DNA of 64,000 nucleotides from Microgenomates group bacterium (GTDB lineage Bacteria; Patescibacteriota; Microgenomatia; Daviesbacterales; UBA10151): NCBI GenBank assembly GCA_041659805.1, contig JBAZXP010000001.1:800141-864140 (forward strand). Direction: 5' to 3'. The notes beneath the pieces are model-generated. The model saw only the letters and a list, made by a program, of their open reading frames with translations, had not been told where the DNA came from and ran no database searches. Numbering within the stretch: position 1 is the first letter of the stretch; every line of letters begins with the position of its first letter. Below are positions 7,726-38,654 of the stretch, piece after piece. The translations under genes were made by a program, and so were the position numbers.

Positions 7726-7736
7726 AACTTACTTCC

Positions 7737-9390: not shown

Positions 9391-9574
9391 AAGATACCCA
9401 TCACATTTCACTCTTAGGGGTTGCACCCCTCGTATTGCAAGGGTAAAGTGCACTCCTATTCAGTCGCCCTTGCAATCCTCACCCCGCTTAGAAAACTTCC
9501 AGTATTGGAAGCAGGCAGGCTGCTTCCAGAAAAAATATTTTCTAGAAAAAGCTGGGGAGGAGGTGAAAATAACA
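9391..9574. other. Structured non-coding intergenic region with at least four stable hairpins. Candidate sRNA, oriT, or recombination site.
   Basis: AGGGGT-tgc-ACCCCT (6 bp). ATTGCAAGGG-23nt-CCCTTGCAAT (10 bp). CTTCCA-gtat-TGGAAG (6 bp). CTGGAAGCAG-gcagg-CTGCTTCCAG (10 bp, perfect). Palindrome GAAAATATTTTC. A GGAGG RBS for the next gene follows. Confidence 0.4.
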
Positions 9575-9981
9575 TGAGTGCATTTTTAGTAGAAGACATA
9601 ACAATTAATAACGTAGTTAATTGGCTAGTTAGAGAATTACCTAACAACTATTACCTTACAGAAGAATTAAAAAAGTTGGGGTATAACACTGAAGATATGG
9701 GTAAATTAGCAAAAGATATGTTTCGGTTAAACCTCGCGTCTTTAAAACAAAGATATGGATCGGTAAAAGGAGCTAGAGAATTATTTTTTAGATATAAGCT
9801 CACACAACCTGTAGCCAAAATTCAGGTATTAAAATCATTGCAATGCTGGTTATATCAATGTGCAGAGGGTAATGTTGTCAGGAAAAAGCTCTATCGGTTC
9901 TTTGATGAAGTAGTGAAGGTTTATTTAATGAGTCATATTATTTATGACCTTCCAGAATATGACGAAGCCCTATGGGGTTAG
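9575..9981 (+). CDS. Hypothetical protein (135 aa)
   Basis: ATG preceded by GGGGAGGAGGTG, an SD-like sequence. The upstream part of the tracked ORF 9421..9981 overlaps the hairpin region and is unlikely to be coding. Confidence 0.5.
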
Positions 9982-9995
9982 TTCTATAAACCTAC

Positions 9996-10036
9996 CGTTT
10001 GTTTAACATGCAAGCGGTAGGTTTTATTCTACAACT
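9996..10036 (+). terminator. Rho-independent terminator-like hairpin followed by a T tract
   Basis: ACCTACCG...CGGTAGGT stem (8 bp) followed by TTTTATTC, immediately after the 9575..9981 stop codon. The loop is long (17 nt). Confidence 0.35.
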
Positions 10037-10085
10037 TGCCAGATATTTGTTTTGTCTTTTGTAAACCGGAACTGTCTTGTACAGG
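10022..10085 (-). pseudogene. C-terminal fragment (about 19 codons plus stop) of a paralog of the Replication-relaxation-like gene at 12673..13452
   Basis: The minus-strand translation ...QFRFTKDKTNIWQVVE* matches the C-terminus ...AIRFTKDKTSIWQKVE* of the 12673..13452 protein. The segment is about 58 bp at roughly 85% nucleotide identity to 12676..12733. Confidence 0.6.
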
Positions 10086-10102
10086 GACCTAAAGTAAAAG
10101 TA

Positions 10103-11047
10103 TTAGCTGTTAGCTAGTCCTCTTTTTAACTCATTAGCTAAATTAAGGTAATTTTCAACTGATTGAAGTACATGGGATACCTCTATTAATTTAGGAAGGG
10201 AGTTCGCTGTTTTTTCTTGAGTATCTAATCTAGGATATTTAATCTGTTCAATTTCTGCATGTCTTTGTTGAACTAAACCCTGAGGTATTTGTCCATAGAT
10301 TTTTTCAAGGAATTGATCAGGGGTAAGTTCTGTTTCTTCTTGTTGTAATGCTTGATAGAGCTCTTTTTGGATTGCTACTGTGACATTATGGTAACGTTCT
10401 CCTTCCAGTGTCCATTGAACCCTTTCGCCTGTTACATATTGTTCAGGGTGAGAGATTGATCTTCTGGCATGTTTTTCTGAAAGCCCCCAGTAAATTCCAT
10501 AAGCAGCAGGCCCGCACATTTCACCGAGAACTGAACCTACATTGATTATGCTTCCTTGTAGACTGTGAATAGTGTAGTAGTCAGCAGCACTCATTAAAGC
10601 TGTTCCGGCAGCTAAAGCTATAAATACAGTTCTCACTCTTGATAGTTCCTGAGAGGGGAATCCTAGCAAACGAGGTCTTTCCATATAGTGTTTGGTAAAT
10701 GATAGCAAGTCTCTTTCAAATTCAGCTCTTGGGTGAAGTTCTGGAGAGGTTCTTAAAACTGCATGAGTTAGTTCTTCTCCTGTACCATATATAGCTAGTG
10801 AAGAGCTTATATTGGTTGAACCGTCGGGAAAATTAGGAACATCATGTTCTGGTCGTTCAAAAACTTGCCATTGTGATTCTTTAGTAGGAAAATCACCGAC
10901 ACTTGTAAAACCTAATTCTCTTGCGATTTGAGGAAGATTATTTAGGTGGGCAGGTTTAAGTACGTCATATTTGAAATTCGAAGAGTGGGCAAGAGTACTA
11001 TACCCTTCAGGAGCTTTATAAGCTTCGCCTTCAACCGTGTGCGCCAT
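10103..11047 (-). CDS. Hypothetical protein (314 aa) with visibly higher GC than its surroundings
   Basis: Long ORF, MAHTVEGEAYKAPEG..., with no motif I recognize. Local GC is well above the window average. Confidence 0.5.
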   Translation of the reverse strand: MAHTVEGEAYKAPEGYSTLAHSSNFKYDVLKPAHLNNLPQIARELGFTSVGDFPTKESQWQVFERPEHDVPNFPDGSTNISSSLAIYGTGEELTHAVLRTSPELHPRAEFERDLLSFTKHYMERPRLLGFPSQELSRVRTVFIALAAGTALMSAADYYTIHSLQGSIINVGSVLGEMCGPAAYGIYWGLSEKHARRSISHPEQYVTGERVQWTLEGERYHNVTVAIQKELYQALQQEETELTPDQFLEKIYGQIPQGLVQQRHAEIEQIKYPRLDTQEKTANSLPKLIEVSHVLQSVENYLNLANELKRGLANS

Positions 11048-11120
11048 AATACATAATTTTATACATCTTATGGTTCCTCCTTGTCAATAATTGTTCATAT
11101 ATAAAGCCTTAGTGATTATT

Positions 11121-11276
11121 TTATTCAGTAGGAGTTTCTACACTTATCCATATATCATCTTCTGCACACCAATAAACAACCTTTTTATATTCTTTATATT
11201 TTTTGCCCTTTTTACCATTATTGGTAACTGCATCCCATTGTTCTGTCATTTTCTGCTTACACCTTGAACATTTCAT
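11121..11276 (-). CDS. Small cysteine-containing protein (51 aa), not in the ORF track
   Basis: Manual translation gives MKCSRCKQKMTEQWDAVTNNGKKGKKYKEYKKVVYWCAEDDIWISVETPTE*. A truncated copy of its 3' end is present at 11972..12025. Confidence 0.35.
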   Translation of the reverse strand: MKCSRCKQKMTEQWDAVTNNGKKGKKYKEYKKVVYWCAEDDIWISVETPTE

Positions 11277-11368
11277 GAAATTATTATACCTCAGTCACAC
11301 GAATTATAGATTTAAGCTTTTTATATCAAGAAATTGTATTTAAAAAATCAATGTGATATTTTGGTATT

Positions 11369-11626
11369 ATGACACGGTCACCAGATTATGAACCATATTA
11401 CAGACCAACAACTAATCGTACAAGTTTAAATTTTACTGAAAGAGCTGCAAACCATTTAATAGCATCTATTGTTTATGGCGGTTTTTTTATTACCCGTCCT
11501 GATGCATTATTTAAAAATACTCCACGAGAAATTGCTAAAGGATATCAGAGATTTTACAACAACATGGATCATATAGGATTGTTGCCATATAGACCATTAG
11601 TAGGCTGTATAAAAACTATTCACTAA
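11369..11626 (+). CDS. Hypothetical protein (85 aa)
   Basis: ORF only. Confidence 0.3.
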   Translation: MTRSPDYEPYYRPTTNRTSLNFTERAANHLIASIVYGGFFITRPDALFKNTPREIAKGYQRFYNNMDHIGLLPYRPLVGCIKTIH

Positions 11627-11671
11627 TCAATTGCTGTTTTTTAAATTCTCAGGTTTTGTTATAGTAAAAAT

Positions 11672-11860
11672 ATGATTTATGAAATTATTGGCTGGATTGG
11701 TACAGGATTAGTTCTATTGGCATATTTTTTGGTATCGACCCGCAGAATTGCCCCTACCTCAAAGGAATATCAATTGATAAATTTGTTTGGTGCGTTAGGT
11801 ATTATTATTAACTCTGCCATACATATGGCAATTCCTTCTGTGGGACTTAATGTTGTTTAG
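11672..11860 (+). CDS. Hypothetical small membrane protein (62 aa, two predicted TM segments)
   Basis: Hydrophobic segments IIGWIGTGLVLLAYFLV and LFGALGIIINSAIHMAI. Confidence 0.3.
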   Translation: MIYEIIGWIGTGLVLLAYFLVSTRRIAPTSKEYQLINLFGALGIIINSAIHMAIPSVGLNVV

Positions 11861-11971
11861 TTACTAATTGCTGTTTATGGATTATTAAAAGTAGGTAGGA
11901 AATAATTATTTAGCTTTCTACCCCAATATTGGCCTTACCTTCACTAATTCTTTTACTGATTTCCTAAGTGA

Positions 11972-12025
11972 TTTTATTTAGTAGAGTTTTTACACTTATC
12001 CAAATATCATCTTTAGAATTGCGAT
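11972..12025 (-). repeat. About 50-bp imperfect direct repeat of 11113..11166. It is a truncated remnant of the small Cys protein gene's 3' end.
   Basis: tgattttatttagtagagtttttacacttatccaaatatcatcttt versus tgattattttattcagtaggagtttctacacttatccatatatcatcttc. The minus-strand translation ...SKDDIWISVKTLL matches ...AEDDIWISVETPTE. Confidence 0.55.
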
Positions 12026-12058
12026 ACATGCCTATAGTGTGCTAGAATTCCTGTCTAT

Positions 12059-12655
12059 ATGAGTATTATTGAAGAAGGAAGAGGTTCTAGCGAAGTTATT
12101 GGGCGAAATCCAGAAATGATGCAAGTCAGAAATCTACCTGGATATGTTGCATTGGTTAGGTATACTTATGATTTGTTGCCAGATGAAGAAATCTATACAA
12201 AAGTTTTGCAGAACAGAAACGTATTCGGCTTCGATCATCAACCAATAATTTCAGATAGACATTTACATGGAGATTTTGCGGTAACAAGAGGCCAAGGTAT
12301 TGAAGGATATAATTTATTAGGTTCAGATGAAGTTAGAAATACCCGAAATCAAAGGAGAAACCAATTAGAAATGATCTTATATAATTTGGAAAAAGCAGAA
12401 GCTTTTATGGATTCCGTAGATTCTACGCTTGCAGGTTTAGGGTTCCGTGGTCAGATTGCGCTGAAACTTAAATATCAATTAGATTCTTCTCTCCCTTCAT
12501 TGTCTAGTAAAGAGATTGGCTCAAGAATTAAAGAAGGAATGGGTAGAAGAGGGGCACGAACCTCTTTTAAAAGAGGGATTTCGCGTTTAAGAGAAAAATC
12601 AGTTGCAAAAGACATATTTGATTTTTTAGATAGAAGAACTCCTCAAGCAATATAA
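12059..12655 (+). CDS. Hypothetical protein (198 aa)
   Basis: ORF with an ATG start. No recognizable motif. Confidence 0.45.
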   Translation: MSIIEEGRGSSEVIGRNPEMMQVRNLPGYVALVRYTYDLLPDEEIYTKVLQNRNVFGFDHQPIISDRHLHGDFAVTRGQGIEGYNLLGSDEVRNTRNQRRNQLEMILYNLEKAEAFMDSVDSTLAGLGFRGQIALKLKYQLDSSLPSLSSKEIGSRIKEGMGRRGARTSFKRGISRLREKSVAKDIFDFLDRRTPQAI

Positions 12656-12672
12656 AAGTATTTAAGAAATAA

Positions 12673-13452
12673 TTATTCTACTTTCTGCCAGATACTTGTT
12701 TTGTCTTTAGTAAACCGGATTGCATCTTGTGTAGTTAAAAATAGTGAGATGTCTTCAAATGTTTTTTCCAAAACTGCTTTACCGTAATAATAGATATGCT
12801 TTTTTCTCTTTTCGTCCTGAAGGATGAAAAGAATTAAGGGGAAAGGGCTATTATTCGTATTGGCTTGCCAGTCACCGCATTCGCAGTAGGAAATATATTG
12901 TTTTATTCTTTGCCTTGGAAGAAATGCCGGGTTTTTATAACCGTCATAAAGATCAAGAAAATACCTGTCTGTCCCTTCTTTGCTGTTAACCGCAATATAA
13001 GCGTCTGGTAACTCATCAGGGAAATAATCATATCCTATCAAATCTTGTGGTGTAAAAAAGCTTAGTTCTGTATCTCTTGCTTGTTGTTTTAAGAAAAAGA
13101 GATAGATATCAAAAATAAAAAGACAATGGTTTCTAAAATTCTCAGTTAATTTCTTCTCCTTATATATTCTTTCTAAAAAGCTTTTGTCATTATTTTCATC
13201 TTCTTGCAAAATATGTCTTGCTTTTGTATCTAAGCAGAATATAAAAGGTTTTGTAGGATTTTTTGTGTCTTTTATTGCGTAGATATATTTATTTTCTCTT
13301 AATGTTTTTAATCGTTCTTTTACTCTGTGTGGATCTTTATGATTAAAGTATTTTTGTAGTTGGTTGATTGTTAGGAAACGGAATTTGTAGAGTAAGAAGA
13401 GAATTTGTTTTTGGTATTTTTTTATTGATTTAGTATTTTTATTATCTTTCAT
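12673..13452 (-). CDS. Replication-relaxation family-like protein with an N-terminal winged-helix domain
   Basis: N-terminal ILFLLYKFRFLTINQLQKYF...RVKERLKTLRENKYI matches the hallmark ILxLLyxhRFLTxxQlxxLlf...RLkkLxexGli of Replication-relaxation (PF13814-type) proteins. It lies adjacent to a coupling-protein-like ATPase. Confidence 0.6.
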   Translation of the reverse strand: MKDNKNTKSIKKYQKQILFLLYKFRFLTINQLQKYFNHKDPHRVKERLKTLRENKYIYAIKDTKNPTKPFIFCLDTKARHILQEDENNDKSFLERIYKEKKLTENFRNHCLFIFDIYLFFLKQQARDTELSFFTPQDLIGYDYFPDELPDAYIAVNSKEGTDRYFLDLYDGYKNPAFLPRQRIKQYISYCECGDWQANTNNSPFPLILFILQDEKRKKHIYYYGKAVLEKTFEDISLFLTTQDAIRFTKDKTSIWQKVE

Positions 13453-13620
13453 ATTTTTAGTTAAGAAGTTGAGGCAGAGGATTAGATATAGGTAAGTTTA
13501 AACTCCTTGGTGGGATTATATAACATCCACTTATATTTATATAAGTATAAAGAGTCTGTAATTATTTCTATTTTAGTCTCAAATTGTACAAATTTTAGTA
13601 CCCACACGTAGGTACTATTT

Positions 13621-16524
13621 TTAGCTCTTTCTATCCTCTGGAAAACCGCTTTTAGATGTAACTATATTTTTACTATTTGAATGCTTTTCATTGCTAACTT
13701 CACTTAGATTGTTAGTAACTTTTTGATATTTGATTGCCCAGTTTTTTCTTGAAGCCTCAATTAATTTTTCAATCTTTTTAGAATTTTTATCTACAGGTAT
13801 AAATATTGTTTCACCAGAAAAAGGTTCCTCCGATTCAATTGCGGAAATTTTAATATAAAAGCGATATCTTGGAAGATTCATAATCGCACCTTTTTCCAAG
13901 TAAGGGCTGAACTGATTTAGCATTAACTCCTCGTCAACATAATTACCGCTTCTGAAACTAATAACTGTGGTGACATTGGCAAGAATAATATTTGTAATAT
14001 CCCTGTCTTTTTGCTGGGAGGTGGATTGTTCTGCAATTATTAAAGGCATTTTATATTTTCTTCCCTCAGTAACCATTTTGGTAAATGAGGGGGTAGCAAA
14101 AGTTTGAAATTCATCAACATATAAATAGAAACTTTTTCTTTTGTTTTGTGGAATGTACGCTCTTTTTAATGCTGCTTGTTGAAGTTTGGTCATAATGGTT
14201 GTACCCATTAATCTTGAAGAATCTTCTCCTAATTTTCCCTGTGAGAAATTACAAATTAAAATTTTTCCTTGATTAATAATGTCATCAAAGTTTATTGTTG
14301 ATTTTGACTGTTCAAGGATTCTTTTAGCAGTTGGGGAGCGCATAAACCTTCCGACTTTTGCTGTTACACCCTGTGTCATTTTTACAACCTGAAAGTCTCC
14401 GGCTTTGCCAAATTCGTATTTCCAAAAATCAACCAAGTCTTCATCTTTTAATCGGCTAATTACATTTTTTCTAAAAGTAGGATTTGTTAAAATTTTATTG
14501 ATAGTAAATAAGGTGCATTCTTCGATTGTAAATGCAGTATAAATAGTATTTCGTAAAATATATTCAATCCTATGGGCATTGGTACTTTCGTCTTTAGAAA
14601 AAACTTTTCTAAACAGGGAAATTACACCTTCAGCGACTACTTCTTTTTCTAACTCTGCATCTTCCTCGTCTAATCCTCGAGTGAGTTCCAATAAATTAAT
14701 TCCTATTGGATACTTTAAATCAATGGGGTTAACATAAATTAGATCATCCTTTCTACTTAAGGGAATTGATGCAACCAGATCTTCTGCCACATCTCCATGC
14801 GGATCAATAAAAGCTAAACCTCTACCTTCTTCGATATCGTGTTTAGCCATTGAAAACATTAAGGTTGTTTTTCCACTTCCAGTTCTTCCCAAAATATACA
14901 TATGGGTTTGTCTTTCTTCCTCTGTTAGCCCAATATCCGTAGTTGTCCCTCCGTATGTATTTTTTCCGAAGATGACATTTAATTTTGTATCTTTTTTTAG
15001 AGACAAAGGAGCTGGTAGCTCTTTGCTGTAAAGTTTTACAATATCTTCTGTTTTTGTTGTATCAGTGTAAGGAAAATGATAAAAATCCGAGAGTTCAGAA
15101 ATAGAAAGAATGGGGTTTTTATTAAAAACGCTACTATGCGACAGTATTCTTCTTTTAAATTGGTCTAACCGCTGCCTTATTACTAATGGAGAAGGGAATA
15201 AACTTCTTTTCGTATTAATCGACTGGAAGGCTGTATTCATAACACCAAAGGATGCCATAAGGCCAGAGACCCTGCTTTTAAGCTCTTCTGAATCCTTTGT
15301 TATAACAAGCATTCGTATTGATGTTTCAAACAAAGGCTGGTCTATTTTTTCTTTTACAGTTATTTGTAACTCCTGTTCGTAAGGATTTAGCGTTTCTTGT
15401 GTGGAAGCAGCATCCATCGCCTCAGAAGCCATTAAAAAAGGAATCGCTTTACCGTTTGGATCCATAAAACCCAAAAGCATGCTATAGACAAACATCCAAA
15501 AAAATTTAAAAATCGACCATACTCCTTTGATAAATATTGCAATGATTGAAACTCCTGGTAATTCAGCAATCTTTTGTAAAATGTTTTGGTTTAACAGGGG
15601 CGTAAGCGGTTGTCTTTGGTACATACTCTTCCTTAAACCATTCATACTGCTTACAATATTTTTATGAGTATTCGACAAGACAGGAGTTGTCACTATTTGA
15701 AATGATATAAGCTCATTATCTTTTAGCTTTGTCATGTTACCAGTCAAATAAGAAATCGGATCGTGTTCTTCGAGCACTTTTTGTTTAGAAAGAGGCAAGG
15801 CAAAGGTTGATGCTAGTTTAAACTCAACAATACCTTGATATATTTTGTCTTGTGGGTTATCTTCTATATAATCTTCTACCTCTACAATCCTTATACCTGG
15901 CAAATAAGATAAAAGGCTCCTCTTAATAACATTGGCATTTTTTATATCTGTTACAAGAATATATCTAATCCCTTGATTCTTGGTTGAAATAATTTCCAGG
16001 CTAAATACTTTTTTATTTTTTAATAATCGTTCACTAAAACTTTGTTGCCTGGCAAGGCTATGTAGTAGCGTGTAAAGCTGTTGAGTAGCATATGCTGATT
16101 TACTAGTATCAGACGGAAAGGTTAATTCAAGAAAAACCTTGTTTGGTTTAGGAATAAATTTTGAAAAAAGAAACGGGGATAGTGTTTGAAAGAGTGAAGC
16201 CAAAATCTTCGTAAAAATCAAAAGAATAGCTATGCTTAAAATAAGAGTTACCGGCCAAAATATGATTAAAATACTGACGGCTACAGGTTGCGCGCCAAAT
16301 AATCCCGTAACAGACGAGCTTGAAGCAGTAAGTGCATTATACATATCCAGTCTCGATTGAAGTGGAAAGAGTGACTCAGGTAATGGAAATTTAAGCAGGA
16401 AGCCTAAAATAAGAGCATTTATAAAAGGCATTTGCTGGTTTTGTATCTGCTGGAGCAACTGCAATTGCTGGACATCAACTGCGTTGTGGGGAATAAATGT
16501 CGGCAATGGCGTTTGATTTGTCAT
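13621..16524 (-). CDS. TraD/VirD4/TraG-like type IV coupling protein (FtsK/HerA-superfamily ATPase) with N-terminal transmembrane segments
   Basis: Walker A YILGRTGSGKTTLMF followed by FIDPHGD. Walker B SFYLYVDEFQTFAT...RKYKMPLIIAEQS. Several N-terminal hydrophobic helices. The protein is 967 aa. Confidence 0.7.
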   Translation of the reverse strand: MTNQTPLPTFIPHNAVDVQQLQLLQQIQNQQMPFINALILGFLLKFPLPESLFPLQSRLDMYNALTASSSSVTGLFGAQPVAVSILIIFWPVTLILSIAILLIFTKILASLFQTLSPFLFSKFIPKPNKVFLELTFPSDTSKSAYATQQLYTLLHSLARQQSFSERLLKNKKVFSLEIISTKNQGIRYILVTDIKNANVIKRSLLSYLPGIRIVEVEDYIEDNPQDKIYQGIVEFKLASTFALPLSKQKVLEEHDPISYLTGNMTKLKDNELISFQIVTTPVLSNTHKNIVSSMNGLRKSMYQRQPLTPLLNQNILQKIAELPGVSIIAIFIKGVWSIFKFFWMFVYSMLLGFMDPNGKAIPFLMASEAMDAASTQETLNPYEQELQITVKEKIDQPLFETSIRMLVITKDSEELKSRVSGLMASFGVMNTAFQSINTKRSLFPSPLVIRQRLDQFKRRILSHSSVFNKNPILSISELSDFYHFPYTDTTKTEDIVKLYSKELPAPLSLKKDTKLNVIFGKNTYGGTTTDIGLTEEERQTHMYILGRTGSGKTTLMFSMAKHDIEEGRGLAFIDPHGDVAEDLVASIPLSRKDDLIYVNPIDLKYPIGINLLELTRGLDEEDAELEKEVVAEGVISLFRKVFSKDESTNAHRIEYILRNTIYTAFTIEECTLFTINKILTNPTFRKNVISRLKDEDLVDFWKYEFGKAGDFQVVKMTQGVTAKVGRFMRSPTAKRILEQSKSTINFDDIINQGKILICNFSQGKLGEDSSRLMGTTIMTKLQQAALKRAYIPQNKRKSFYLYVDEFQTFATPSFTKMVTEGRKYKMPLIIAEQSTSQQKDRDITNIILANVTTVISFRSGNYVDEELMLNQFSPYLEKGAIMNLPRYRFYIKISAIESEEPFSGETIFIPVDKNSKKIEKLIEASRKNWAIKYQKVTNNLSEVSNEKHSNSKNIVTSKSGFPEDRKS

Positions 16525-16615
16525 AACTTCCAGGCAGAAGTAATCAAAGTATAGCTAACTTGCAATCTAGCAGATAAAGCTCAGATTTTATATGGCATTT
16601 ATGCCAAATTCCCTC

Positions 16616-16645
16616 TTGACACTGTGTCTAGAAGGATAGTATATT
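16616..16645 (+). promoter_or_regulatory. Sigma-70-like promoter, TTGACA with 18 nt spacing to TATATT, overlapped by two palindromic operator-like sites
   Basis: cttgacactgtgtctagaaggatagtatattatcc. Palindromes GGATAgtatatTATCC and ATTATCCttatagGGATAAT sit just upstream of the small ORF and recombinase. Confidence 0.5.
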
Positions 16646-16666
16646 ATCCTTATAGGGATAATAATT

Positions 16667-16837
16667 ATGGCAAGACTGAAAGGTAGTAAGAATAAAAATT
16701 CCGAAGAAAGAATCACAACCTCTAGCTTGTCACTTCAGGAAAGACTGCGCTTTATTGCTAACCTGATCATAGAAAAAGCCTTAGAAGATCAGAAAAACGG
16801 CAAGGTTTTAATTAGAAAGATCTATGAGTCTAAGTAA
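16667..16837 (+). CDS. Small basic protein (56 aa) immediately upstream of, and overlapping, the serine recombinase start. Candidate recombination directionality factor or regulator.
   Basis: Manual translation gives MARLKGSKNKNSEERITTSSLSLQERLRFIANLIIEKALEDQKNGKVLIRKIYESK*. It overlaps the recombinase ATG by 14 nt and lies downstream of a strong promoter-like site. Confidence 0.35.
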   Translation: MARLKGSKNKNSEERITTSSLSLQERLRFIANLIIEKALEDQKNGKVLIRKIYESK

Positions 16838-18548
16838 CATTCCTAAAATTGAGAACGCGGTTGCTGCAATAAGAGTTTCTTCAACCCAGCAAGGTACTGA
16901 TGGTGATTCCCCTGAAGCACAGAAAGAGCAGATAGAAAGATTTGCCGCTAACCATAACTTTAACGTCAAAAAGATCTTTGTTTTCATGGAGTCAGCGTCC
17001 AAAGAGCAACAACCCATGCAAGAAGCAATTGACTACTGTAAAAATCCTAAAAATGATATTCAGCAATTTATCATTAAATCTATAGATAGATTTACCAGAG
17101 GTGGTTCTTACTCATACGACCATCTTAAAATGCAGCTGGAAAAATATGAAGTCAACTTAGTAGATATTTATGGGGTCATCAGTTCTCACAAAGTGAACAC
17201 TTTAGAGCACTTGGGAGTTTCGTTTAATTGGAGCGTTTACTCTCCTACTAAGAAAAGTGAACTATTGGAGGCTGAAAGAGCTAAAGACGAGATGCGGGAT
17301 ATCATGTCTAGAATGATCGGGGCTGAAATTCGCTATGCCAGAATGGGCTATTGGGTGCGGGAAGCTCCCATTGGATATGTTGTTGAAAAGATTGAAACAC
17401 CAAACGGTAAAAGATGTATTTTAAAACCTCATCCTATTGAATCCTCATGGATTATCAAAATGTTTGAATTAAGATGCAGGGGAACTTTAGGAGATCATCA
17501 AATAGTTGATGAGATAAACAAGCTAGGCTTTAAAACAAGAATAGATTATGTCAGAGACCAGCACGACAGAACTAAAATTATTAAGGAACATGGAGGTCAT
17601 AAGCTGGATATTAAAGGCTTCTGGAGGTATATTCAAAATCCTGTTTATGCCGGAGTCAGTGCAGAGAAGTGGACGGAAGGCCATAGAGTTAAAGGGAAAT
17701 ATGAAGGATTAGTTTCAATTGATACTTTCAATAAAGCAAATAAGGGGAAAGTTATTATTTCTGAAGAGGATGGTCAAATTAAACTTTATAGGAAGCAACC
17801 AGAAGAATGGAGGATCAAAAAAGGAGTAAGAAATCCGGATTTTCCATATAAACGGGTTGTATTATGTCCTCATTGCAAAAGACCGTTATACGGCAGTGCT
17901 TCTAGAGGTAGACTAGGCAAGTACTACCCTGCATATCACTGTAGTAAAGAAGGCCACAACTTTAGGGTTCCTAAGAAAGACTTTGAAGAAGCAATAATTA
18001 AATTTGTTAAAAATATAAATTTAGCACCAGGTTATATAGATGAGTTAGTTAAATCTGTAACCGAAGAATGGGACAAAAGACAGAAGGAAATCACTAAGGA
18101 TACTACCAATTATGATGAAAGAATCACTCAGCTAAAAACCCAAGTTAAGATGACAATTGATAAAATTAAATTTCTCACTTCTGAAGTGGCTATTAGATAT
18201 ATGGAGCAAGACTTAGTTAAAGCAGAAGAAGAAATAGCTCAACTTATGATCGACAAGCAAAAGGCTGATCAGGAAAAACCAGTAGATGCCAATATTATTA
18301 TGGCGTATATAAAATATTATCTAGAGCACATGGACGAATTATTGTTAGATAATAATTCAGATCCCATATTTAAGGCTAATTGTTTTGGAGTGCTTTTTGA
18401 TAAGGCTCCAACCTATACGGAAATAAACAATTTTACTTCTGGAAAAATAGATTCTGGAACACCTGATTTAGCAAGTTGTATCGCTCTAAACGAGGCCTTC
18501 ATTAGATCTCAAGGGAAGCTGGCTGCGGGACATGGATTCGAACCATGA
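16824..18548 (+). CDS. Large serine recombinase (integrase)
   Basis: Catalytic motif AAIRVSSTQQG and DRFTRGG (resolvase domain). Recombinase domain and Zn ribbon CPHCKRPLYGSASRGRLGKYYPAYHC. Coiled-coil C-terminus. The 3' end overlaps tRNA-Gln. Confidence 0.85.
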   Translation: MSLSNIPKIENAVAAIRVSSTQQGTDGDSPEAQKEQIERFAANHNFNVKKIFVFMESASKEQQPMQEAIDYCKNPKNDIQQFIIKSIDRFTRGGSYSYDHLKMQLEKYEVNLVDIYGVISSHKVNTLEHLGVSFNWSVYSPTKKSELLEAERAKDEMRDIMSRMIGAEIRYARMGYWVREAPIGYVVEKIETPNGKRCILKPHPIESSWIIKMFELRCRGTLGDHQIVDEINKLGFKTRIDYVRDQHDRTKIIKEHGGHKLDIKGFWRYIQNPVYAGVSAEKWTEGHRVKGKYEGLVSIDTFNKANKGKVIISEEDGQIKLYRKQPEEWRIKKGVRNPDFPYKRVVLCPHCKRPLYGSASRGRLGKYYPAYHCSKEGHNFRVPKKDFEEAIIKFVKNINLAPGYIDELVKSVTEEWDKRQKEITKDTTNYDERITQLKTQVKMTIDKIKFLTSEVAIRYMEQDLVKAEEEIAQLMIDKQKADQEKPVDANIIMAYIKYYLEHMDELLLDNNSDPIFKANCFGVLFDKAPTYTEINNFTSGKIDSGTPDLASCIALNEAFIRSQGKLAAGHGFEP

Positions 18549-18593
18549 TAAACAGATCCAAAGTCTGTTGTCCTACCATTAGACGATCCCGCA
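18520..18593 (-). tRNA. tRNA-Gln (anticodon UUG), CCA encoded
   Basis: Manual fold: acceptor UGCGGGA/UCCCGCA with U1:A72, anticodon stem ACAGA/UCUGU, loop CUUUGGA, T-arm CAUGG-UUCGAAU-CCAUG, discriminator G then CCA. It overlaps the recombinase 3' end by about 26 nt. Confidence 0.75.
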
Positions 18594-22768: not shown

Positions 22769-22848
<80 letters not shown>

Positions 22849-22866
22849 ATAACAAACATTCACATT

Positions 22867-24606
22867 TTACCTCACAACCACACTTTTTGCTAGATTCCTG
22901 GGTTTATCTGGATTTAATCCTTTTTTAAGGGCTAATTTGTAAGCTAAAATTTGGGCAAAAACAGTGTGGGGAATTATAGAGCTTGCTCCACAATCTTTTA
23001 CTTTAAAATAAAAATCAAATACAGGATTATTTTCAGGCCCCACCCCAATCACATAAGCCCCCCTGGCTTGCACCTCTTTGGCATTAGCCAAAATCCCATC
23101 TTTTGTCTCATCATTTGGCACAAACACAATCACAGGTGTACCTTTGCTAATTAGGGCAAGTGGGCCATGTTTTAACTCTCCTCCTGCATAGCCTTCTGCA
23201 TGAACATATGTTGTTTCTTTTATTTTTAAAGCAGCTTCCAAAGCAATCGGATAAGATAACCCCCTGCCTAAACAAAAAATGTGATCTTGCTTAGCAATAA
23301 CTTTAACTAACACCTCCAAATTCTTCTCGTGTTTTAAAATACTTTTTATTTCAATTGCACTTTTTTCTAAAATTTCTATCCCTGTTTGTTTTTTACCAGC
23401 AACCATAAAGGTCAGTAAAATCATTTCAGAAAGCATAGCAATAAAGGCTTTAGTAGAAGCAACGGCTTTCTCCACTCCTGCATTCAGTAATAATTTATAA
23501 TCCGCATTCCTATATAAGGTTGAGCCCAAAGTATTCGTCATTGCCACAATTTTGCATTTTTTTGCCTTTGCAGCATTCACTGGCTCAATTGTGTCTATTG
23601 TTTCACCACTTTGAGAGACAGCAACAACTAGACTTTTAGGTGTTAAAGCATGCTCTATATAATTAAACTCAGATCCAATAGAGAAATTTACATGTTTTTT
23701 GGCAAATTTTGAGAAAAGATATGTTCCAGCCAGACATGCGTATGCAGCAGTACCACAACCGATAAAATATGTTCCATATGCTTTTCTTATTTCTGTAGCA
23801 ATTTCTTCTAGAACTTTGCTGTTTTTTAGGATTGTTTCTATAACTTTTGGCTGTTCATTTGTTTCTTTCTCCATGAAATATTTGTAATTATTAAGAGTAG
23901 ATGAGGCATAATCCCAAACAACTTTGGTAAATTTGGGTTCAATTTCTTTTAAATTCTTCACTTCCATAATTTTTAATTTGCCATTTAATACCACCATCTG
24001 ACCATCTTCTATAAATATCAGTTTATCTGTTAAAGAAAGTAGGGCGTTAGGATCAGAAGCCAAAGCATACCCCTCTTTTAATTTACCTAGAACCAAAGGA
24101 GAGCCTTTTTTACAGGCAATAATCTGGGTGCCATCTGAAACTACGATAGCATTTAATCCCTCTAAAATATTAAAGATTTTAGCCACAGATTTAACTAAAT
24201 TCTTTGTTTTTTTAAATTCTTCTTCGATCAAGTGAATAATCACTTCTGAGTCTGTTTCAGATTTGAATGTATGTTTTTTCAAGCCTTTTTTGAGTTCCAG
24301 ATAATTTTCTACGATGCCGTTGTGAACCATCACGAGTTCATTTTTACAATCAGAGTGAGGGTGAGCATTGGCTTCAGTCACACCACCATGAGTTGCCCAA
24401 CGGGTGTGTCCAAGTGAAATATTCGAGCAGGGGAGTAACAATACTTTTGGCAGGAATCCTATTTCCTTCACAGTTTGAAATAATCCATCTAACGGATACG
24501 AGATACCCCATGAATCATAACCGCGGTATTCAATATCAGACAAGCCTTTAAAGGCTGTTTGGGGGGCATGATTTCCTGAATCAATTAAAGCAAAGATTCC
24601 ACACAT
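22867..24606 (-). CDS. glmS: Glutamine--fructose-6-phosphate aminotransferase
   Basis: N-terminal MCGIFA (Ntn amidotransferase Cys2). Tandem SIS domains. The tracked ORF extends upstream, but MCGI marks the true start at 24606. Confidence 0.9.
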   Translation of the reverse strand: MCGIFALIDSGNHAPQTAFKGLSDIEYRGYDSWGISYPLDGLFQTVKEIGFLPKVLLLPCSNISLGHTRWATHGGVTEANAHPHSDCKNELVMVHNGIVENYLELKKGLKKHTFKSETDSEVIIHLIEEEFKKTKNLVKSVAKIFNILEGLNAIVVSDGTQIIACKKGSPLVLGKLKEGYALASDPNALLSLTDKLIFIEDGQMVVLNGKLKIMEVKNLKEIEPKFTKVVWDYASSTLNNYKYFMEKETNEQPKVIETILKNSKVLEEIATEIRKAYGTYFIGCGTAAYACLAGTYLFSKFAKKHVNFSIGSEFNYIEHALTPKSLVVAVSQSGETIDTIEPVNAAKAKKCKIVAMTNTLGSTLYRNADYKLLLNAGVEKAVASTKAFIAMLSEMILLTFMVAGKKQTGIEILEKSAIEIKSILKHEKNLEVLVKVIAKQDHIFCLGRGLSYPIALEAALKIKETTYVHAEGYAGGELKHGPLALISKGTPVIVFVPNDETKDGILANAKEVQARGAYVIGVGPENNPVFDFYFKVKDCGASSIIPHTVFAQILAYKLALKKGLNPDKPRNLAKSVVVR

Positions 24607-24633
24607 ACTTAAGAAGAATTTGTGCCGAACGAA

Positions 24634-24660
24634 AACTTTGTGCCACGACCTGGACGAAGC
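24634..24660 (-). repeat. Partial duplicate of the 3' end (T-loop to acceptor, about 22-25 nt) of the tRNA at 24776..24848. It lies in the glmS 5' leader and is att-like.
   Basis: tttgtgccacgacctggac(g)aagcg versus the tRNA 3' end tttgtgccacgacctggactcgaacc. aagaatttgtgcc is also repeated at 24609 and 24766. Confidence 0.55.
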
Positions 24661-24775
24661 GGAGCTTGCGACCTTCGGTCTTCGAACCTGCTTAGCTCTG
24701 CGAGATGCGCAAGTTAAATTCCCGATATCATGGCAAAAAAATTCTTTATCCAACAAAAGTTGAACAAAGAATTTG

Positions 24776-24848
24776 TGCCACGACCTGGACTCGAACCCGG
24801 ATAAGACGCTCTTCAGGCGCCCGCCTTGACCATCTTGGCTATCGTGGC
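24776..24848 (-). tRNA. tRNA-Phe-like (anticodon GAA) with an atypical D-arm (3-bp D-stem, 11-nt D-loop) and one T-stem mismatch
   Basis: Acceptor GCCACGA/UCGUGGC, perfect. Anticodon stem GGCGC/GCGUC, loop CUGAAGA. T-loop UUCGAGU. Possibly a functional unusual tRNA, or a degenerate one. Confidence 0.5.
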
Positions 24849-24928
24849 AACACTTGGGTATTATAGCAAATTACAACTATTCGGACAATTCAGGTTTGAA
24901 GAAGTTAGTCTAAAGCCTTTATGATTAA

Positions 24929-25267
24929 CTAATGTAGATTCTTTTCTAGAGCTAACTGAACTGCCAGTACAAGAACAGGATTGTGAGTAGGAGGAATGTC
25001 TAAATAAATCTCTTGAACGGGAGGGATAACATCCTTGATCAATAGGCCTTTCTTCAACCCCAAACCACACTCTTGTTCATATGTAGGATCGCCAGTACTT
25101 TGATACTTTTCCACATCAGAGGTTCTTCCTTGTTCAATAAGCCATGCTTTAACATAAAGAGAGCGTATTCTTTGTGCTAAGGAAGCAAATTCCTTTGGGC
25201 TATTTGCTGAATATCTGGTACAAAAGGAAATTGTATCCCCTGATTCATAATGGTTCTCAATAGTCAT
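24929..25267 (-). CDS. Hypothetical protein (about 112 aa, start MTIENHYESGD). The tracked upstream extension overlaps tRNA-Val and is spurious.
   Basis: The ORF remains after trimming the tRNA overlap. No recognizable motif. Confidence 0.3.
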   Translation of the reverse strand: MTIENHYESGDTISFCTRYSANSPKEFASLAQRIRSLYVKAWLIEQGRTSDVEKYQSTGDPTYEQECGLGLKKGLLIKDVIPPVQEIYLDIPPTHNPVLVLAVQLALEKNLH

Positions 25268-25314
25268 TTGGAGATTATAACAAAATATAATTAATTTTAC
25301 TATGGGTTTCTGAG

Positions 25315-25387
25315 TGGGCAGTAAGGGACTCGAACCCCTGACATCTTCAGTGTAAATGAAGCGCTCTACCAACTGAGCTAACTGCCC
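25315..25387 (-). tRNA. tRNA-Val (anticodon UAC)
   Basis: GGGCAGU acceptor, D-arm GCUC-AGUUGGUA-GAGC, anticodon loop UUUACAC, T-arm AGGGG-UUCGAGU-CCCUU. Confidence 0.85.
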
Positions 25388-25511
25388 GGACAAAAACTAA
25401 CTAATTCTGCCCTAGGCTCAAATTATACTACTTTTTTGATTAATCTCATATAAACTCATTAGAATTTTACTATTTGCATAAGCTCATAGTTTTTATGTAT
25501 AATTCTCATTT

Positions 25512-26354
25512 ATGTTGGATAACGAACCGGAAGAGTATGAATTCAGGCACAAACAAAGAATTTATCTTGATGGATATCAAGGTGTTGCAAAAGGATTGAT
25601 GCAATTAAATGATCCTGTAGCAGATGGATTTATGAGGGTTGCCGATATGCGGGGAAACATCCAAATTATTCAAAAACCACAAGACAGAGTCCGGGATTAT
25701 GAAGATGTAGGCTTTGTTAGAATAGGTAAGTTTCTTAAAATGCCCAGATTAGATTTTTGGCATGGAGACGGTCTGGTAGAGACCAAAAAAGAGGAGGGCA
25801 ATTGGTTTATTGCTATAAATGACGAAGATTTAGCAGACAAAGTAGCAAGAACAAATGATGGAACTCAGAAATTTGATGACTTGTATCTGGAAGCGTTTAA
25901 CAAAGAGGTTAAAAGGGGACTAACTACTTGTCTAAAAAGGGAAAAATTGTTAAATAGCGGGAACTATAACTTAGGACTTGTTATAGGATATAACGCTTTT
26001 ATTGATATTGCGGTGTTGCTTCCAGGAGTAGCTGTTGCCCAAATAACAACCGGAGAAAATCCACTTTATACAGCTTTAATTTTAAGCGGATTATATACTT
26101 TTTGGACAGGAGCTCATAATGCAATCAATTTATTTGGCGCAGGATTACATATTGCCGAGGACAAAATCTTCGCTCCACATCAACCCAAAGGATTTCCTAA
26201 ATATAAAAGTTTATTACCAAATTTTCAGGATCCATTTACAAAACACAGCATATTAGATATGGTATTAGGTCCAAATGTGCCTGTTGACCGCTTATTCAGA
26301 GGATTACGATATCTGGATAAACACGGAAATCAACTGATTGAAGCCAGAAGTTAA
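25512..26354 (+). CDS. Hypothetical protein (280 aa) with a C-terminal hydrophobic region
   Basis: ORF only. Confidence 0.4.
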   Translation: MLDNEPEEYEFRHKQRIYLDGYQGVAKGLMQLNDPVADGFMRVADMRGNIQIIQKPQDRVRDYEDVGFVRIGKFLKMPRLDFWHGDGLVETKKEEGNWFIAINDEDLADKVARTNDGTQKFDDLYLEAFNKEVKRGLTTCLKREKLLNSGNYNLGLVIGYNAFIDIAVLLPGVAVAQITTGENPLYTALILSGLYTFWTGAHNAINLFGAGLHIAEDKIFAPHQPKGFPKYKSLLPNFQDPFTKHSILDMVLGPNVPVDRLFRGLRYLDKHGNQLIEARS

Positions 26355-26355
26355 T

Positions 26356-27768
26356 TTATTTATATAACTCTTTAAGCCTTATATACAATGCAGGGGTAAA
26401 CATGCCCTTTGGATAAACCTCCTGTGGGAAGTCAGATTTATTTGAGTGTTCAACTGGACTTAAAGCATCTTCAACTACTTTCATAGTAAATTGGTGTTTT
26501 CTGGAATCCATTTTAGGTGCAACCTTATCATCAATCTCCCTTTTTATAAGATCAATTTGCTGAGGCGATTCCACCATTCTGTAATTTGGTATTTGATCCC
26601 AAACATTTTGCAGATAGCTGAGAAATCCTATTGCTCTGCCAGTAGATGTAACCGGGCTGTAAGTATAGGGGAATTTATATTCATTTGTTGATAGTCTTTG
26701 ACCAGATTCCTGTAACTGCTGAAATGCACCTTTTTCTTTGGAACTGAATAAGGCCCCAACGGCTGACGCAAATATGTAGCTATGCCCGCGCCAAACAGCA
26801 CCTGTCACTTGACCTTCAGAAATTGGTAACAAATGTGAAACTGCATTGCCAACATTATCAACAATGTGAGTATCTGCATTCAAAACAGGAGGAGCTAGTA
26901 AAATACCTGCTGCTGTGGCTATTTTTAGAGGAACTCTAAGCCAACCCTGATTAACTAGGTCTGCTGTTTGTTCTTTAGCATCAATAAACATATTCCGTGT
27001 TCCCATAAAAGGAGAGTACTCCATAAACAAAAGTAGGGCTAAAGAAGAGACAGCCTTTTCTCTCAATCCTCTTGATTCTTTTAAAGTCTGCCATCTGGTT
27101 AATAACTCTTCAATTCCGGCCTCATGAATAGTGCAGGCAGCTTCATCTAAACGAAACTCGCTTTGCCAAGCATTTTCACCCCAATAGTTAACATTTTTAT
27201 TTTTACTCTTTTCTTGATTTTTAGCCTCCAGGAAGTAAGCCATTTGCTGATGATGCCTTGCATGAATAGATTCATGTCTCCACCAACTTCTTCTCCCTAC
27301 ATGATAAAGTCCCCGGAGAAATGGCATAGAAAGCCCATCCAAACCACCATTCACTGCCAAATATGCCATTAAAGGATCTGTTAGACAAACATCATTCATC
27401 CTCATCGTACTTGAGCTAATATTATAGGTACCCAGGATAAACGGAAGAAAATGTACATGTCCTGAATCTTCGACTATACCTTGAACTGACTCAAAAACTT
27501 CAGGCGGGAGAGACCAAATTTTAGCCCTATCTACATTGTTTTCAGGATTCAATAGTGTGTTACCAAATAAATGCTTTTTACTAGCTTCAGATGTGTGTTT
27601 GAGGATATAATTTGCGTCCGTAGCAGTATAAATATCAGGATTAACTTTAGCCCATTTATCATGAATTTTAGTACGTCCTTTATCTATTGTATTGAAAACT
27701 CCATCAAATACTTGACCTGCTCGTTCTAACATGGGGAGGATTATAACAGTGGCTAAAAAACTTGTCAA
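26356..27768 (-). CDS. Hypothetical protein (470 aa)
   Basis: ORF only. Histidine-rich segment HESIHARHHQQ. Confidence 0.4.
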   Translation of the reverse strand: MTSFLATVIILPMLERAGQVFDGVFNTIDKGRTKIHDKWAKVNPDIYTATDANYILKHTSEASKKHLFGNTLLNPENNVDRAKIWSLPPEVFESVQGIVEDSGHVHFLPFILGTYNISSSTMRMNDVCLTDPLMAYLAVNGGLDGLSMPFLRGLYHVGRRSWWRHESIHARHHQQMAYFLEAKNQEKSKNKNVNYWGENAWQSEFRLDEAACTIHEAGIEELLTRWQTLKESRGLREKAVSSLALLLFMEYSPFMGTRNMFIDAKEQTADLVNQGWLRVPLKIATAAGILLAPPVLNADTHIVDNVGNAVSHLLPISEGQVTGAVWRGHSYIFASAVGALFSSKEKGAFQQLQESGQRLSTNEYKFPYTYSPVTSTGRAIGFLSYLQNVWDQIPNYRMVESPQQIDLIKREIDDKVAPKMDSRKHQFTMKVVEDALSPVEHSNKSDFPQEVYPKGMFTPALYIRLKELYK

Positions 27769-27792
27769 ACTATGGGGCGCTGACTTTTATTG

Positions 27793-27875
27793 TGGGCGAG
27801 AAAGGAGTTGAACCTTCACGGCATTGCTGCCACTACCACCTCAAGGTAGCGTGTATACCATTTCACCACTCGCCC
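27793..27875 (-). tRNA. tRNA-Leu (anticodon GAG), type II with a long variable arm
   Basis: GGGCGAG acceptor, anticodon loop UUGAGGU, variable arm UGGCAGCAAUGCCGU, T-loop UUCAACU. Confidence 0.8.
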
Positions 27876-27967
27876 TTAAACCTGTCGATCAGAGTATCAG
27901 CAAATCAGTATATCAAATTAGATTGATCTGACAATCTGATCCACCGACAAACCGAACATCTGGTTAG

Positions 27968-28050
27968 TACCGAAGAGAGGAGTTGAACCTCCACGCCCTT
28001 GCGGGCACTACGACCTGAACGTAGCGCGTCTACCATTCCGCCACTTCGGC
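27968..28050 (-). tRNA. tRNA-Leu (anticodon CAG), type II
   Basis: GCCGAAG acceptor, anticodon loop UUCAGGU, variable arm UGCCCGCAAGGGCGU, T-loop UUCAACU. Confidence 0.8.
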
Positions 28051-31002: not shown

Positions 31003-31155
31003 CATAAGGATTGGAGGTTCAATCCCGACGTTTCGTCGGGACAGGATCGTTTTGACGAAGTCAAAAGGTAGCCCTATTCCTCTCATCCGCACAAAGTAAG
31101 CACAAAGTAGCCAAAAGTGGTATAATATAGGTCTAAATCCTGCCTAAAGGATTAT

Positions 31156-37601: not shown

Positions 37602-38654
37602 TTGAGGGTGGAAAGTAAAATTTTACAAATTCATTCAGATTATCTTGAAAAAATTAAAGAAGCTAATTCTTTGGATATTTTAGATGAGATTTTTTTGGGA
37701 CTTTTTGGAAAAAGTGGGGAAATTACTCTAATTCCAAGAGACTTTGGTAAATTATCAAAAGAAGAAGTTAGTAAAATTGCTCCAATTTTTAATCAAATTA
37801 AAACTGAACTGGAGTCTGAAATCGGGAAGAGAAGAGAAGAAGTCAGAGAAGAAAAGTACAGTAAATTAGTAAATGACACTATAGATATTGCTCAAGAGGC
37901 ACAAATAAGCCTCCCAAAGGGTGCTATTCACCCTATAACCAAGCTTGAACACGAAGTAGTGGAACTATTCTCTCAACTGGGTTTTCAACAGTATCAAGCC
38001 CCTCATATTGATACAGATAATTATAATTTCGAGCTGCTGAATATCCCATCCGGTCACCCGGCCAGGGATCTTTGGGACACTCTTTATTTGGAAAATAAAT
38101 TTGATGATTTGGATATCGGAAAACTGCTACTCCGAACTCATACCTCTAACGCTCAGGTCAGACTTATGAGGGAACATGGTGTACCACTCCGCATGATGGT
38201 TATCGACCGTTGCTTCAGATATGAAAACCTGGATGCCAGACATGAACATACGATGGAACAATTTGAGATTGTTTATGTGGACAAGAATGTAAACATGGCT
38301 AACTTACAATATTTGTCTGAATATTTTTTAAAAGCTATTTTTGGTAAAGAAACTAAAGTACGCCTTCGACCAAAATATTATCCATTTGTGGAACCAGGGG
38401 CAGGTGTTGATGGCGAATGTTTATTTTGTAAAGGAGCAGGTTGTAAGGTTTGCTCAGGGACAGGCTGGTTGGAGCTGGCAGGAGCAGGAATGATCCACCC
38501 ACAAGTACTGCGAAATGGGGGAATTGATCCAAACGAATATTCAGGTATCGCCTGGGGGTTTGGACCAGAAAGAATGGCGATGTTAAAATATGGAATTTCT
38601 GACATCAGGGTATTTAAAAGTGGAGATTTAAAAGCTTTGGGAGGAATCAAATGA
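37602..38654 (+). CDS. pheS: Phenylalanine--tRNA ligase alpha subunit (non-ATG start, TTG or GTG)
   Basis: GHPARDLWDTLYL, class II motifs, and a C4 zinc knuckle CLFCKGAGCKVCSGTGW as in Bacillus-type PheS. Confidence 0.9.
   Translation: MRVESKILQIHSDYLEKIKEANSLDILDEIFLGLFGKSGEITLIPRDFGKLSKEEVSKIAPIFNQIKTELESEIGKRREEVREEKYSKLVNDTIDIAQEAQISLPKGAIHPITKLEHEVVELFSQLGFQQYQAPHIDTDNYNFELLNIPSGHPARDLWDTLYLENKFDDLDIGKLLLRTHTSNAQVRLMREHGVPLRMMVIDRCFRYENLDARHEHTMEQFEIVYVDKNVNMANLQYLSEYFLKAIFGKETKVRLRPKYYPFVEPGAGVDGECLFCKGAGCKVCSGTGWLELAGAGMIHPQVLRNGGIDPNEYSGIAWGFGPERMAMLKYGISDIRVFKSGDLKALGGIK

Follow-up and report, generated by a model that had tools for sequence, protein, structure and literature searches.

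A gene-less insertion between tRNA-Phe and glmS in a Candidatus Daviesbacteria genome and its possible origin as a recombination scar

In a 64-kb stretch of DNA (hereafter, the window) from an uncultivated bacterium of the candidate phyla radiation (CPR; Microgenomates / Candidatus Daviesbacteria), the gene for tRNA-Phe(GAA) and the downstream gene glmS are separated by a short insertion that begins at the 3' end of the tRNA, is bounded by copies of that end, and is absent from the three closest relatives; neither a recombinase nor a cargo gene was found between the repeats. The insert is interpreted, with a probability of about one in two, as a recombination scar of the attL/attR type, a gene-less remnant that would be ordinary in kind, unusually small, and no island. 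This interpretation is based on the configuration of the locus, the boundary of the repeat within the T-loop, the presence/absence polymorphism, and the recurrence of similar arrangements at different tRNAs. Coordinates refer to positions in the window, and all relevant features are on the minus strand.

The insertion and its boundaries

The 3' end of the tRNA-Phe gene occurs three times in the same orientation. Copy A (24762..24790) comprises the tRNA from residue G59 of the T-loop through the 3' strand of the acceptor stem and the discriminator, together with a 14-nt trailer (GTCCAGGTCGTGGCACAAATTCTTTGTTC), and copy B (24627..24655), detected like copy A by both a repeat finder and BLAST, is identical to it at 26 of 29 positions. 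The two are offset by 135 nt and constitute the sole significant repeat of the region (E-values of about 1e-5 to 3e-5 in a search of the 64-kb window). All 15 tRNA positions of copy B match those of copy A, the differences being found at three of the 14 trailer positions; identity thus sets in at about position 59 of the T-loop and runs beyond the discriminator. Copy C (GGCACAAATTCTT, 24614..24626) matches 24767-24779 at 13 of 13 positions and is spaced 18 nt from copy B, such that the two form an 18-nt tandem repeat. The insert can therefore be parsed in two ways, as 153 nt between perfect 13-mers or as 106 nt between 29-mers plus the 18-nt tandem repeat. Among the nine tRNAs of the window, a partial copy of the end was found with tRNA-Phe alone. 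A preliminary description of this DNA had recognized the repeat and placed its second copy at 24634..24660; the repeat is real, but its ungapped extent is 24627..24655, the similarity past 24655 is weak (GCTTCG-TCC against GGTTCGAGTCC), and aagaatttgtgcc, which had been taken as part of the second copy, is not contiguous with it and instead is the separate perfect 13-mer at 24614-24626. Likewise, the nearness of the repeat to the glmS start, earlier given as about 30 nt, was resolved into a distance to the ATG of 34 nt from the second copy and of 7 nt from the third.

The glmS gene (22867..24606; ATG at 24606..24604) encodes a glutamine--fructose-6-phosphate transaminase of 579 aa that starts MCGIF. 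Its closest relatives by identity are those of loci L002/L003 (89%), L001 (82%) and L004 (82%), all of which carry tRNA-Phe before glmS without a hairpin, a pseudo-tRNA or a second copy of the 3' end. The gap between tRNA-Phe and the glmS ATG, 169 nt in this genome, is 12 nt in L001 and 23 nt in both L002/L003 and L004. The junction of L001 (GGCACAAAGTCTTATT-ATG) has its orthologue in copy C and the trailer behind it (GGCACAAATTCTTCTTAAGT-ATG), and copy C plus the following 7 nt is, as read from these sequences, the stretch where the end of the tRNA originally met glmS. Given the insert-free relatives and this orthology, the ancestral state was concluded to be a tRNA-Phe abutting glmS. The comparison of the locus in related genomes, which the preliminary description had proposed, thus separated genomes with and without the insert; absence of the repeat from orthologous loci, which that description had counted against an integration event, is what is expected of an insertion footprint and does not refute it.

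That an assembly or chimera artefact made the repeat is hardly credible. Misassembly of metagenome-assembled genomes can produce short repeats, but L005, an independent Logan assembly from another run that was used as the assembly control, is 100% identical to the window over 760 nt that run from tRNA-Val through tRNA-Phe and the insert into the beginning of glmS, and hence misassembly did not create the locus. An identical glmS protein also occurs on contigs of several sources (three were read, of which only L005 was compared).

The tRNA gene itself (24776..24848; discriminator A at 24776, CCA not encoded) is, on the evidence of its sequence and of its orthologues, the normal functional tRNA-Phe of the lineage and no pseudogene or decayed copy. 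It was judged genuine because of its score, the extended -10 promoter that serves it, and the compensatory stem changes seen among its orthologues. The run of a tRNA caller suggested earlier was made with ARAGORN, which returned a single tRNA-Phe(GAA), as did Rfam (24775/24776..24848), the score of 55 bits comparing with a gathering score of 29 bits for the tRNA model. The promoter (24860..24888) consists of TTGTCC, a 17-nt spacer and TGcTATAAT, a match of 10/12 with the TG present, and the promoter block TTTGCTATAATACCCAAGT is kept in L001. The compensatory changes, observed across five genomes, involve the acceptor pairs 4:69 (A-U to G-C) and 6:67 (G-C to A-U), and the anticodon stem too.

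With respect to its structure, the ARAGORN drawing displays the features that had been described, viz. a GAA anticodon, a 3-bp D-stem with an 11-nt D-loop, and one G.A pair in the T-stem; the Rfam alignment takes the D-stem as having a fourth, non-Watson-Crick pair, A13.A22. The anticodon stem, previously called perfect, contains one G.U pair. The gene had also been called atypical, a label that does not suit it: its D-arm, its 4-nt variable loop and its sequence are common to the Daviesbacteria orthologues, the D-arm and variable loop being those of L001, L002, L014 and L015. The G51.A63 mismatch is common to the window, L001 and L002, and is replaced by G.U in L029 and by paired residues in L014 and L015. 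No other tRNA-Phe occurs among the nine tRNAs of the window, which also includes the phenylalanyl-tRNA synthetase genes pheS and pheT (37602-40333).

Contents of the insert

Directly behind the tRNA is a terminator-like hairpin (24735..24774) with a 16-bp stem (AAAUUCUUUGUUCAAC / GUUGGAUAAAGAAUUU), a UUUU loop, and a subsequent U7 at 24741..24735. Its calculated free energy is -16.5 to -18.8 kcal/mol (z -6.4 for the value of -18.8), and its design of A-tract, stem and U-tract is the same as that of the clean intergenic hairpins at 9988, 19232 and 28137. The stem has three G-C pairs only, and a scan for consensus terminators did not call it. It is plausible that hairpin and U7 represent a putative intrinsic terminator positioned directly behind the regenerated tRNA. 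The hairpin had been missed in the preliminary description, as had the 5' acceptor-like strand (GCCATGATA) that follows it.

The next 94 nt (24641..24734), starting with GCCAUGAUA and ending with GUCCAGGUCGUGGCA, have the form of a pseudo-tRNA shell in which two arms sit on an acceptor-like closing stem of 8 bp (GCCAUGAU / GUCGUGGC). At 55% GC, compared with 36% for the genome, the segment is among the top 0.2% of 94-nt windows; its predicted fold has a free energy of -34.8 kcal/mol (z -2.6), and folding of the whole leader gave z-values of -3.9 to -5.5. The 5' acceptor-like strand (24734..24726) matches the 5' end of tRNA-Phe at eight of nine positions (p about 0.007), and a 7-bp acceptor complement alone arose by chance in 15% of shuffles. 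Within the shell are a generic T-loop-like GGTTCGAAG and a GACC-GAA-GGUC hairpin. The hairpin next to the 8-bp closing stem is joined to it by a 2-nt linker and has bulges within. A UUCG tetraloop (GACCTTCGGTC) reported earlier for this region belongs to the antisense strand and is out of register, the transcribed strand forming instead the GACC-GAA-GGUC hairpin with its 4-bp stem and 3-nt loop. The inverted repeat CTTGCG/CGCAAG said to flank it does exist; its helix is not used in the minimum free energy (MFE) structure, and enforcing it gave a fold 5 kcal/mol worse than the MFE. Folding of the entire transcript was uninformative, as the duplicated strands swap partners with the real tRNA. 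Overall, the 94-nt segment looks like a mosaic of tRNA-derived pieces, and no gene.

Searches with the interior of the insert were negative. Its similarity to tRNA-Phe was not significant (p 0.5-0.7), nor was that to the region upstream of the tRNA (p 0.85), and hence it is not simply a decayed tandem duplicate. No second copy was found in the window or in the 29 loci fetched in all for comparison, no match in metagenome contigs of the Joint Genome Institute (JGI), and none in viral contigs with four interior and junction patterns and the tRNA 3' end. In a further search the tRNA-end pattern retrieved only L003 again and chance GC-rich matches, and phage and plasmid records yielded nothing credible as a donor element or attP. 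No open reading frame (ORF) fits in the 106-153 bp between the repeats, and no tyrosine integrase (Phage_integrase) was detected among the window ORFs of at least 150 aa scanned over about 0.3-56 kb.

A number of other identities for the insert were tried and rejected. Neither the glmS ribozyme nor any other Rfam family matched the leader (24500-24950) at E-values up to 10. ARAGORN called no second tRNA in the insert at its normal threshold or at 80%, whether or not introns were allowed, and at 70% gave spurious calls only (an opposite-strand call, and an intron-containing tRNA-Trp that overlaps). Alignments of the interior and upstream segments as a decayed tandem tRNA-Phe copy were no better than those of shuffles; among the other tRNAs of the window as a source, a generic T-loop similarity was seen to tRNA-Tyr only, and was gone in a collinear test; and a dispersed repeat or miniature inverted-repeat transposable element (MITE) found no further copy in the 64-kb window or the 29 fetched loci.

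Origin of the insert

Integration at a tRNA gene (tDNA) is known to leave an intact tDNA and a displaced 3' tDNA fragment in the same orientation (PMC4383910, PMC9897764), with crossovers at the anticodon loop, the T-loop, or the T/acceptor junction, and the Islander procedure accepts islands of 2-200 kb and rejects those of <2 kb (PMC4383910). In the favoured scenario, glmS of the ancestor started about 16-23 nt behind the tRNA and was expressed from the tRNA promoter within a tRNA operon; DNA was then inserted exactly at the 3' end of tRNA-Phe, in this lineage alone. The event would have restored a complete tRNA gene (copy A) and pushed the second T-loop-to-trailer segment, now copies B and C, towards glmS, the recombinase most likely having been of the tyrosine-integrase type with its crossover in the T-loop. 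Nearly all of the element would since have been lost, leaving the terminator-like hairpin and the GC-rich, tRNA-like mosaic as a scar and not as a selected element. A donor attP would be expected to contain GTCCAGGTCGTGGCA.

The resemblance to tDNA islands and prophages includes the upstream intact tRNA, the downstream 3' fragment in the same orientation extending from the T-loop to or past the discriminator, the absence of the insert from the orthologous loci, and the status of tRNA clusters as insertion hot spots. Unlike such islands, the copies here are separated by 106-153 bp and not by 2-200 kb, the insert has no integrase and no cargo, and there are three nested copies together with a 5' acceptor-like strand. 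The features used by Islander are accordingly divided: a full tDNA with a cognate 3' fragment, a T-loop boundary and a presence/absence polymorphism were found, and a tyrosine integrase between tDNA and fragment and a length of 2-200 kb were not. The integration footprint proposed in the preliminary description is thus upheld in that a lineage-specific insertion of matching configuration lies at the 3' end of tRNA-Phe, but neither an element nor an integrase, cargo or interior homologue was found to go with it. Cis-mobilizable elements (CIME), remnants of integrative elements that have decayed or are non-autonomous, consist of att-flanked DNA devoid of recombination genes. The insert shares with them the att-like direct repeats around DNA lacking such genes; those described are kilobases long compared with the 135-153 bp here, and the remnant has no sign of mobility.

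Similar arrangements recur in related genomes. With each tRNA searched by BLAST against its own locus, partial end copies were found at about 8 of about 34 tRNAs, and the 3' fragments of the relatives begin at A58/59 of the T-loop and end at or just past the discriminator. They comprise a tRNA-Gly fragment at +147 nt in L002 (2203-2366), a tRNA-Gln fragment at +132 nt in L028 (4483-4631), and nested tRNA-Gly fragments in L001 at +56 nt and, around a 478-aa ORFan, at +1.7 kb (4858-4940, 6586-6700). In the two small cases, those of L002 and L028, the regenerated tRNA is followed by a hairpin and a U-run, as in the window. No homology was detected among the small inserts of the window, L002 and L028, and since they are unrelated and at non-orthologous positions, they would be sporadic events. 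Other lineage-specific insertions within the tRNA cluster of the window, and the conjugative-type element with serine recombinases that abuts tRNA-Gln, both described below, also count in favour of a scar.

Several observations weigh against the proposal of a scar. The interval between the repeats and the window ORFs that were scanned yielded no tyrosine integrase, and a donor element or attP was found in none of the viral, metagenome, phage and plasmid collections. The repeat distance of 135 bp is far below that of known islands, and random internal deletions would not give three independent remnants of 132-147 bp. The insert includes the 5' acceptor-like 9-mer (8/9, p about 0.007), and to our knowledge classical attP sites have no such strand. 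The contrast between 55% GC in the 94-nt segment and 36% in the genome points either to a recent origin or to selection for a structured RNA. Finally, the 18-nt spacing of copies B and C, and a 13-nt tandem at the same junction in L004, are slippage-like and not integrase-like.

The main rival explanation, though a rather unlikely one, is a local duplication without a mobile element, in which unequal crossing-over or slippage duplicated the tRNA-Phe unit or its 3' end, indels and filler DNA scrambled the product, and an 18-nt slippage gave rise to copy C. It would account for the resemblance to tRNA-Phe at both ends of the 94-nt segment (8/9 at the 5' end, 26/29 at the 3' end), for the T-loop-like GGTTCGAAG at about the expected distance from the 5' end, for the 18-nt tandem of copies B and C and the independent 13-nt tandem (CACAAATTT) in L004, and for the failure to find a recombinase. 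Uniform decay, however, cannot explain an interior and upstream region unrelated to the tRNA unit (p 0.5-0.85) next to a tRNA part of copy B that is 100% identical; nothing equivalent to the hairpin with U7 exists upstream of the tRNA; and random duplication does not predict the same T-loop boundary of the fragment in four independent cases among the relatives. A second, non-canonical tRNA (with an intron, a long variable arm or Sec-like features) or another known small RNA before glmS is very improbable: its length of 94 nt, GC-richness, 8-bp closing stem, discriminator A and T-loop-like motif would suit such an RNA, but ARAGORN made no credible call, Rfam gave no match at E-values up to 10, the MFE structure contains no cloverleaf, and the segment is absent from the relatives.

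It has also to be considered that the 94-nt pseudo-tRNA is a functional tRNA mimic, retained because it restores an RNase P/RNase Z-type processing site before glmS, with the hairpin and U7 tuning read-through from the strong promoter of the tRNA. This is unlikely. The notion is consistent with the position of the glmS ATG 2-28 nt past a tRNA in six relatives (including tRNA-Val at +2 in L028 and tRNA-Phe at +6 in L029), with the apparently largely leaderless character of the organism (an SD-like, i.e., Shine-Dalgarno-like, motif at 7/36 ORF starts), with the 8-9-bp closing stem that ends in the discriminator and trailer of the real tRNA, with a GC content of 55% as in structured RNA and a fold better than those of shuffles, and with the tRNA-derived structured spacers kept by relatives (the X element, with its compensatory changes, and minihelix-Gly; see below). 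Against it, the shell is confined to a single lineage and absent from the three closest relatives; with its 2-nt linker and bulges it is a poor mimic of a T-arm, matched by neither the tRNA covariance model nor ARAGORN; a cut after 24641 leaves a 34-nt leader and thus no leaderless mRNA; a 7-bp acceptor complement is obtained by chance in 15% of shuffles; and the duplicated strands, competing with the real tRNA in whole-transcript folding, would be harmful. A broader proposal, and a still more doubtful one, is that the tRNA operons of Daviesbacteria are punctuated by tRNAs and remodelled mimics (pseudo-tRNA-Phe, the X element and minihelix-Gly), that RNase P/Z-type cuts create the 5' ends of promoter-less, near-leaderless mRNAs such as that of glmS, and that the 94-nt shell is a replacement site selected after a terminator-bearing insertion. 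In plant mitochondrial t-elements and mitochondrial tRNA punctuation, cuts by RNase P and RNase Z define the ends of mRNAs. The situation here is alike in that a tRNA or acceptor-stem structure is directly upstream (2-23 nt in relatives) of an mRNA lacking its own promoter, and unlike in that it concerns a bacterial chromosome, that processing is only presumed, and that the mimic is a poor one in one lineage. Background to tRNA-like structures and tRNA punctuation is provided by PMC3790967.

Read, as is preferred here, as a minor scar without genes and of a well-known kind, the insert is of modest importance by itself. It may serve as a dated marker of insertion at a tRNA gene of a CPR genome, and it cautions annotators to expect pieces of tRNA ends and tRNA-like shells often in tRNA clusters of this sort. 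Of greater interest than the insert is its context, namely the embedding of glmS in a tRNA operon and its start, in relatives, only 2-23 nt behind a tRNA.

Context of glmS and of the tRNA cluster

From the window (22769-28050) and the relatives, the ancestral order of the operon was deduced to be Leu(cag)-Leu(gag)-Val(tac)-Phe-glmS-Gly. It is reasonable to suppose that glmS and the tRNA share one transcript, in which processing of the tRNA 3' end makes the 5' end of the glmS mRNA: a spacing of 2-23 nt between tRNA and ATG leaves no room for a promoter, which suggests a near-leaderless mRNA derived from 3' processing of the tRNA. If so, the insertion would show how this arrangement tolerates disruption or repairs itself. 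In the window, the AU-rich leader of 34 nt between 24641 and the glmS ATG holds GGCACAAAUUCUU (24626..24614), and neither a promoter scan nor inspection by eye revealed a promoter between the hairpin and the ATG; with such a promoter-less leader, expression of glmS would now require that transcripts started at the tRNA promoter read through the hairpin. In Escherichia coli, the thrU-tyrU-glyT-thrT-tufB operon combines tRNAs with an mRNA. Both have a protein gene downstream of tRNAs on a tRNA promoter, and they differ in that the ancestral spacer is 2-23 nt here and that tRNAs lie both before and after glmS.

The leaders of glmS vary widely within Daviesbacteria. That of the more distantly related L015 (2282-2471) is a bona fide glmS ribozyme (57 bits), which served as positive control; the leader in the window resembles this family (RF00234) in its location 5' of glmS but, lacking both a match at E-values up to 10 and the core motifs, is no member of it. 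In L016 (2470-2503) and L027 (1973-2003), a leaderless-type promoter (TGGTATAAT) is found about 7-10 nt before the glmS ATG, and in the subclade of the window a tRNA abuts the gene. In most genes of the window a TATAAT-like -10 box is located 6-10 nt upstream of the start codon, and judged from such start regions leaderless mRNAs seem to be what this organism mostly uses. Examples of starts with a TATAAT-like box are those at 28813, 25512, 40878-43406 and 61390. A query with glmS against genome contigs returned only distant Firmicutes and archaeal glmS.

The tRNA cluster of the window is further interrupted by three ORFans of 113, 280 and 470 aa (24929-25270, 25512-26354 and 26356-27768) located between tRNA-Leu, tRNA-Val and tRNA-Phe, for which there was no Pfam match and no PHROG function, one weak PHROG match being obtained. 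In L002, the Leu, Val and Phe tRNAs are adjacent, with a Val-Phe spacer of 31 nt, and in L001 a different ORFan, of 385 aa, occupies the Val-Phe position; no homology was detected between the tRNA-cluster ORFans of the window and L001. Directly downstream of tRNA-Gln (18520-18593) is a block resembling a mobile element of the conjugative type (288-18548). It includes a large serine recombinase (16824-18548), the 3' end of which overlaps tRNA-Gln, a second recombinase fragment (288-1346), a TraG/TrwB-like ATPase (13621-16524), a relaxase-type Replic_Relax protein (12673-13452) and a helicase-nuclease of 1605 aa (1371-6188).

Other tRNA-derived segments were encountered in the relatives. In L016 (293-693), the 5' half of tRNA-Leu(cag), up to the anticodon loop, is repeated 314 nt upstream of the intact gene, and an 83-aa ORF for a GIY-YIG nuclease (Pfam, 1.4e-14) lies between the fragment and the gene. 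Upstream of tRNA-Gly, the conserved X element occurs in L002 (2014-2146), in L004 (1850-2019) and, as two tandem 131-nt units, in L014 (4403-4653). It combines the 5' end of tRNA-Gly (positions 1-19), a D-loop insertion with a structure of its own, the 3' strand of the D-stem, and an anticodon-type stem with a GAA triloop; its compensatory changes track the tRNA-Gly of each genome, and it had no match in Rfam. Minihelix-Gly, a conserved 28-nt hairpin (GCGGGAGUAAG-N5-CUUGCUCNCCGC) starting with the 5' strand of the tRNA-Gly acceptor stem, is likewise upstream of tRNA-Gly, in L004 (1813-1840 and 2020-2047) and L028 (3971-3998). C-GAA-G triloop hairpins with stems of 4-8 bp are frequent in the spacers of the tRNA clusters, being found in the window (31050-31066), L001 (1532-1546), L002 (2087-2342), L014 (4426-4621) and L028 (4566-4578); they include GCGAAGC, which we take to be a very stable DNA mini-hairpin.

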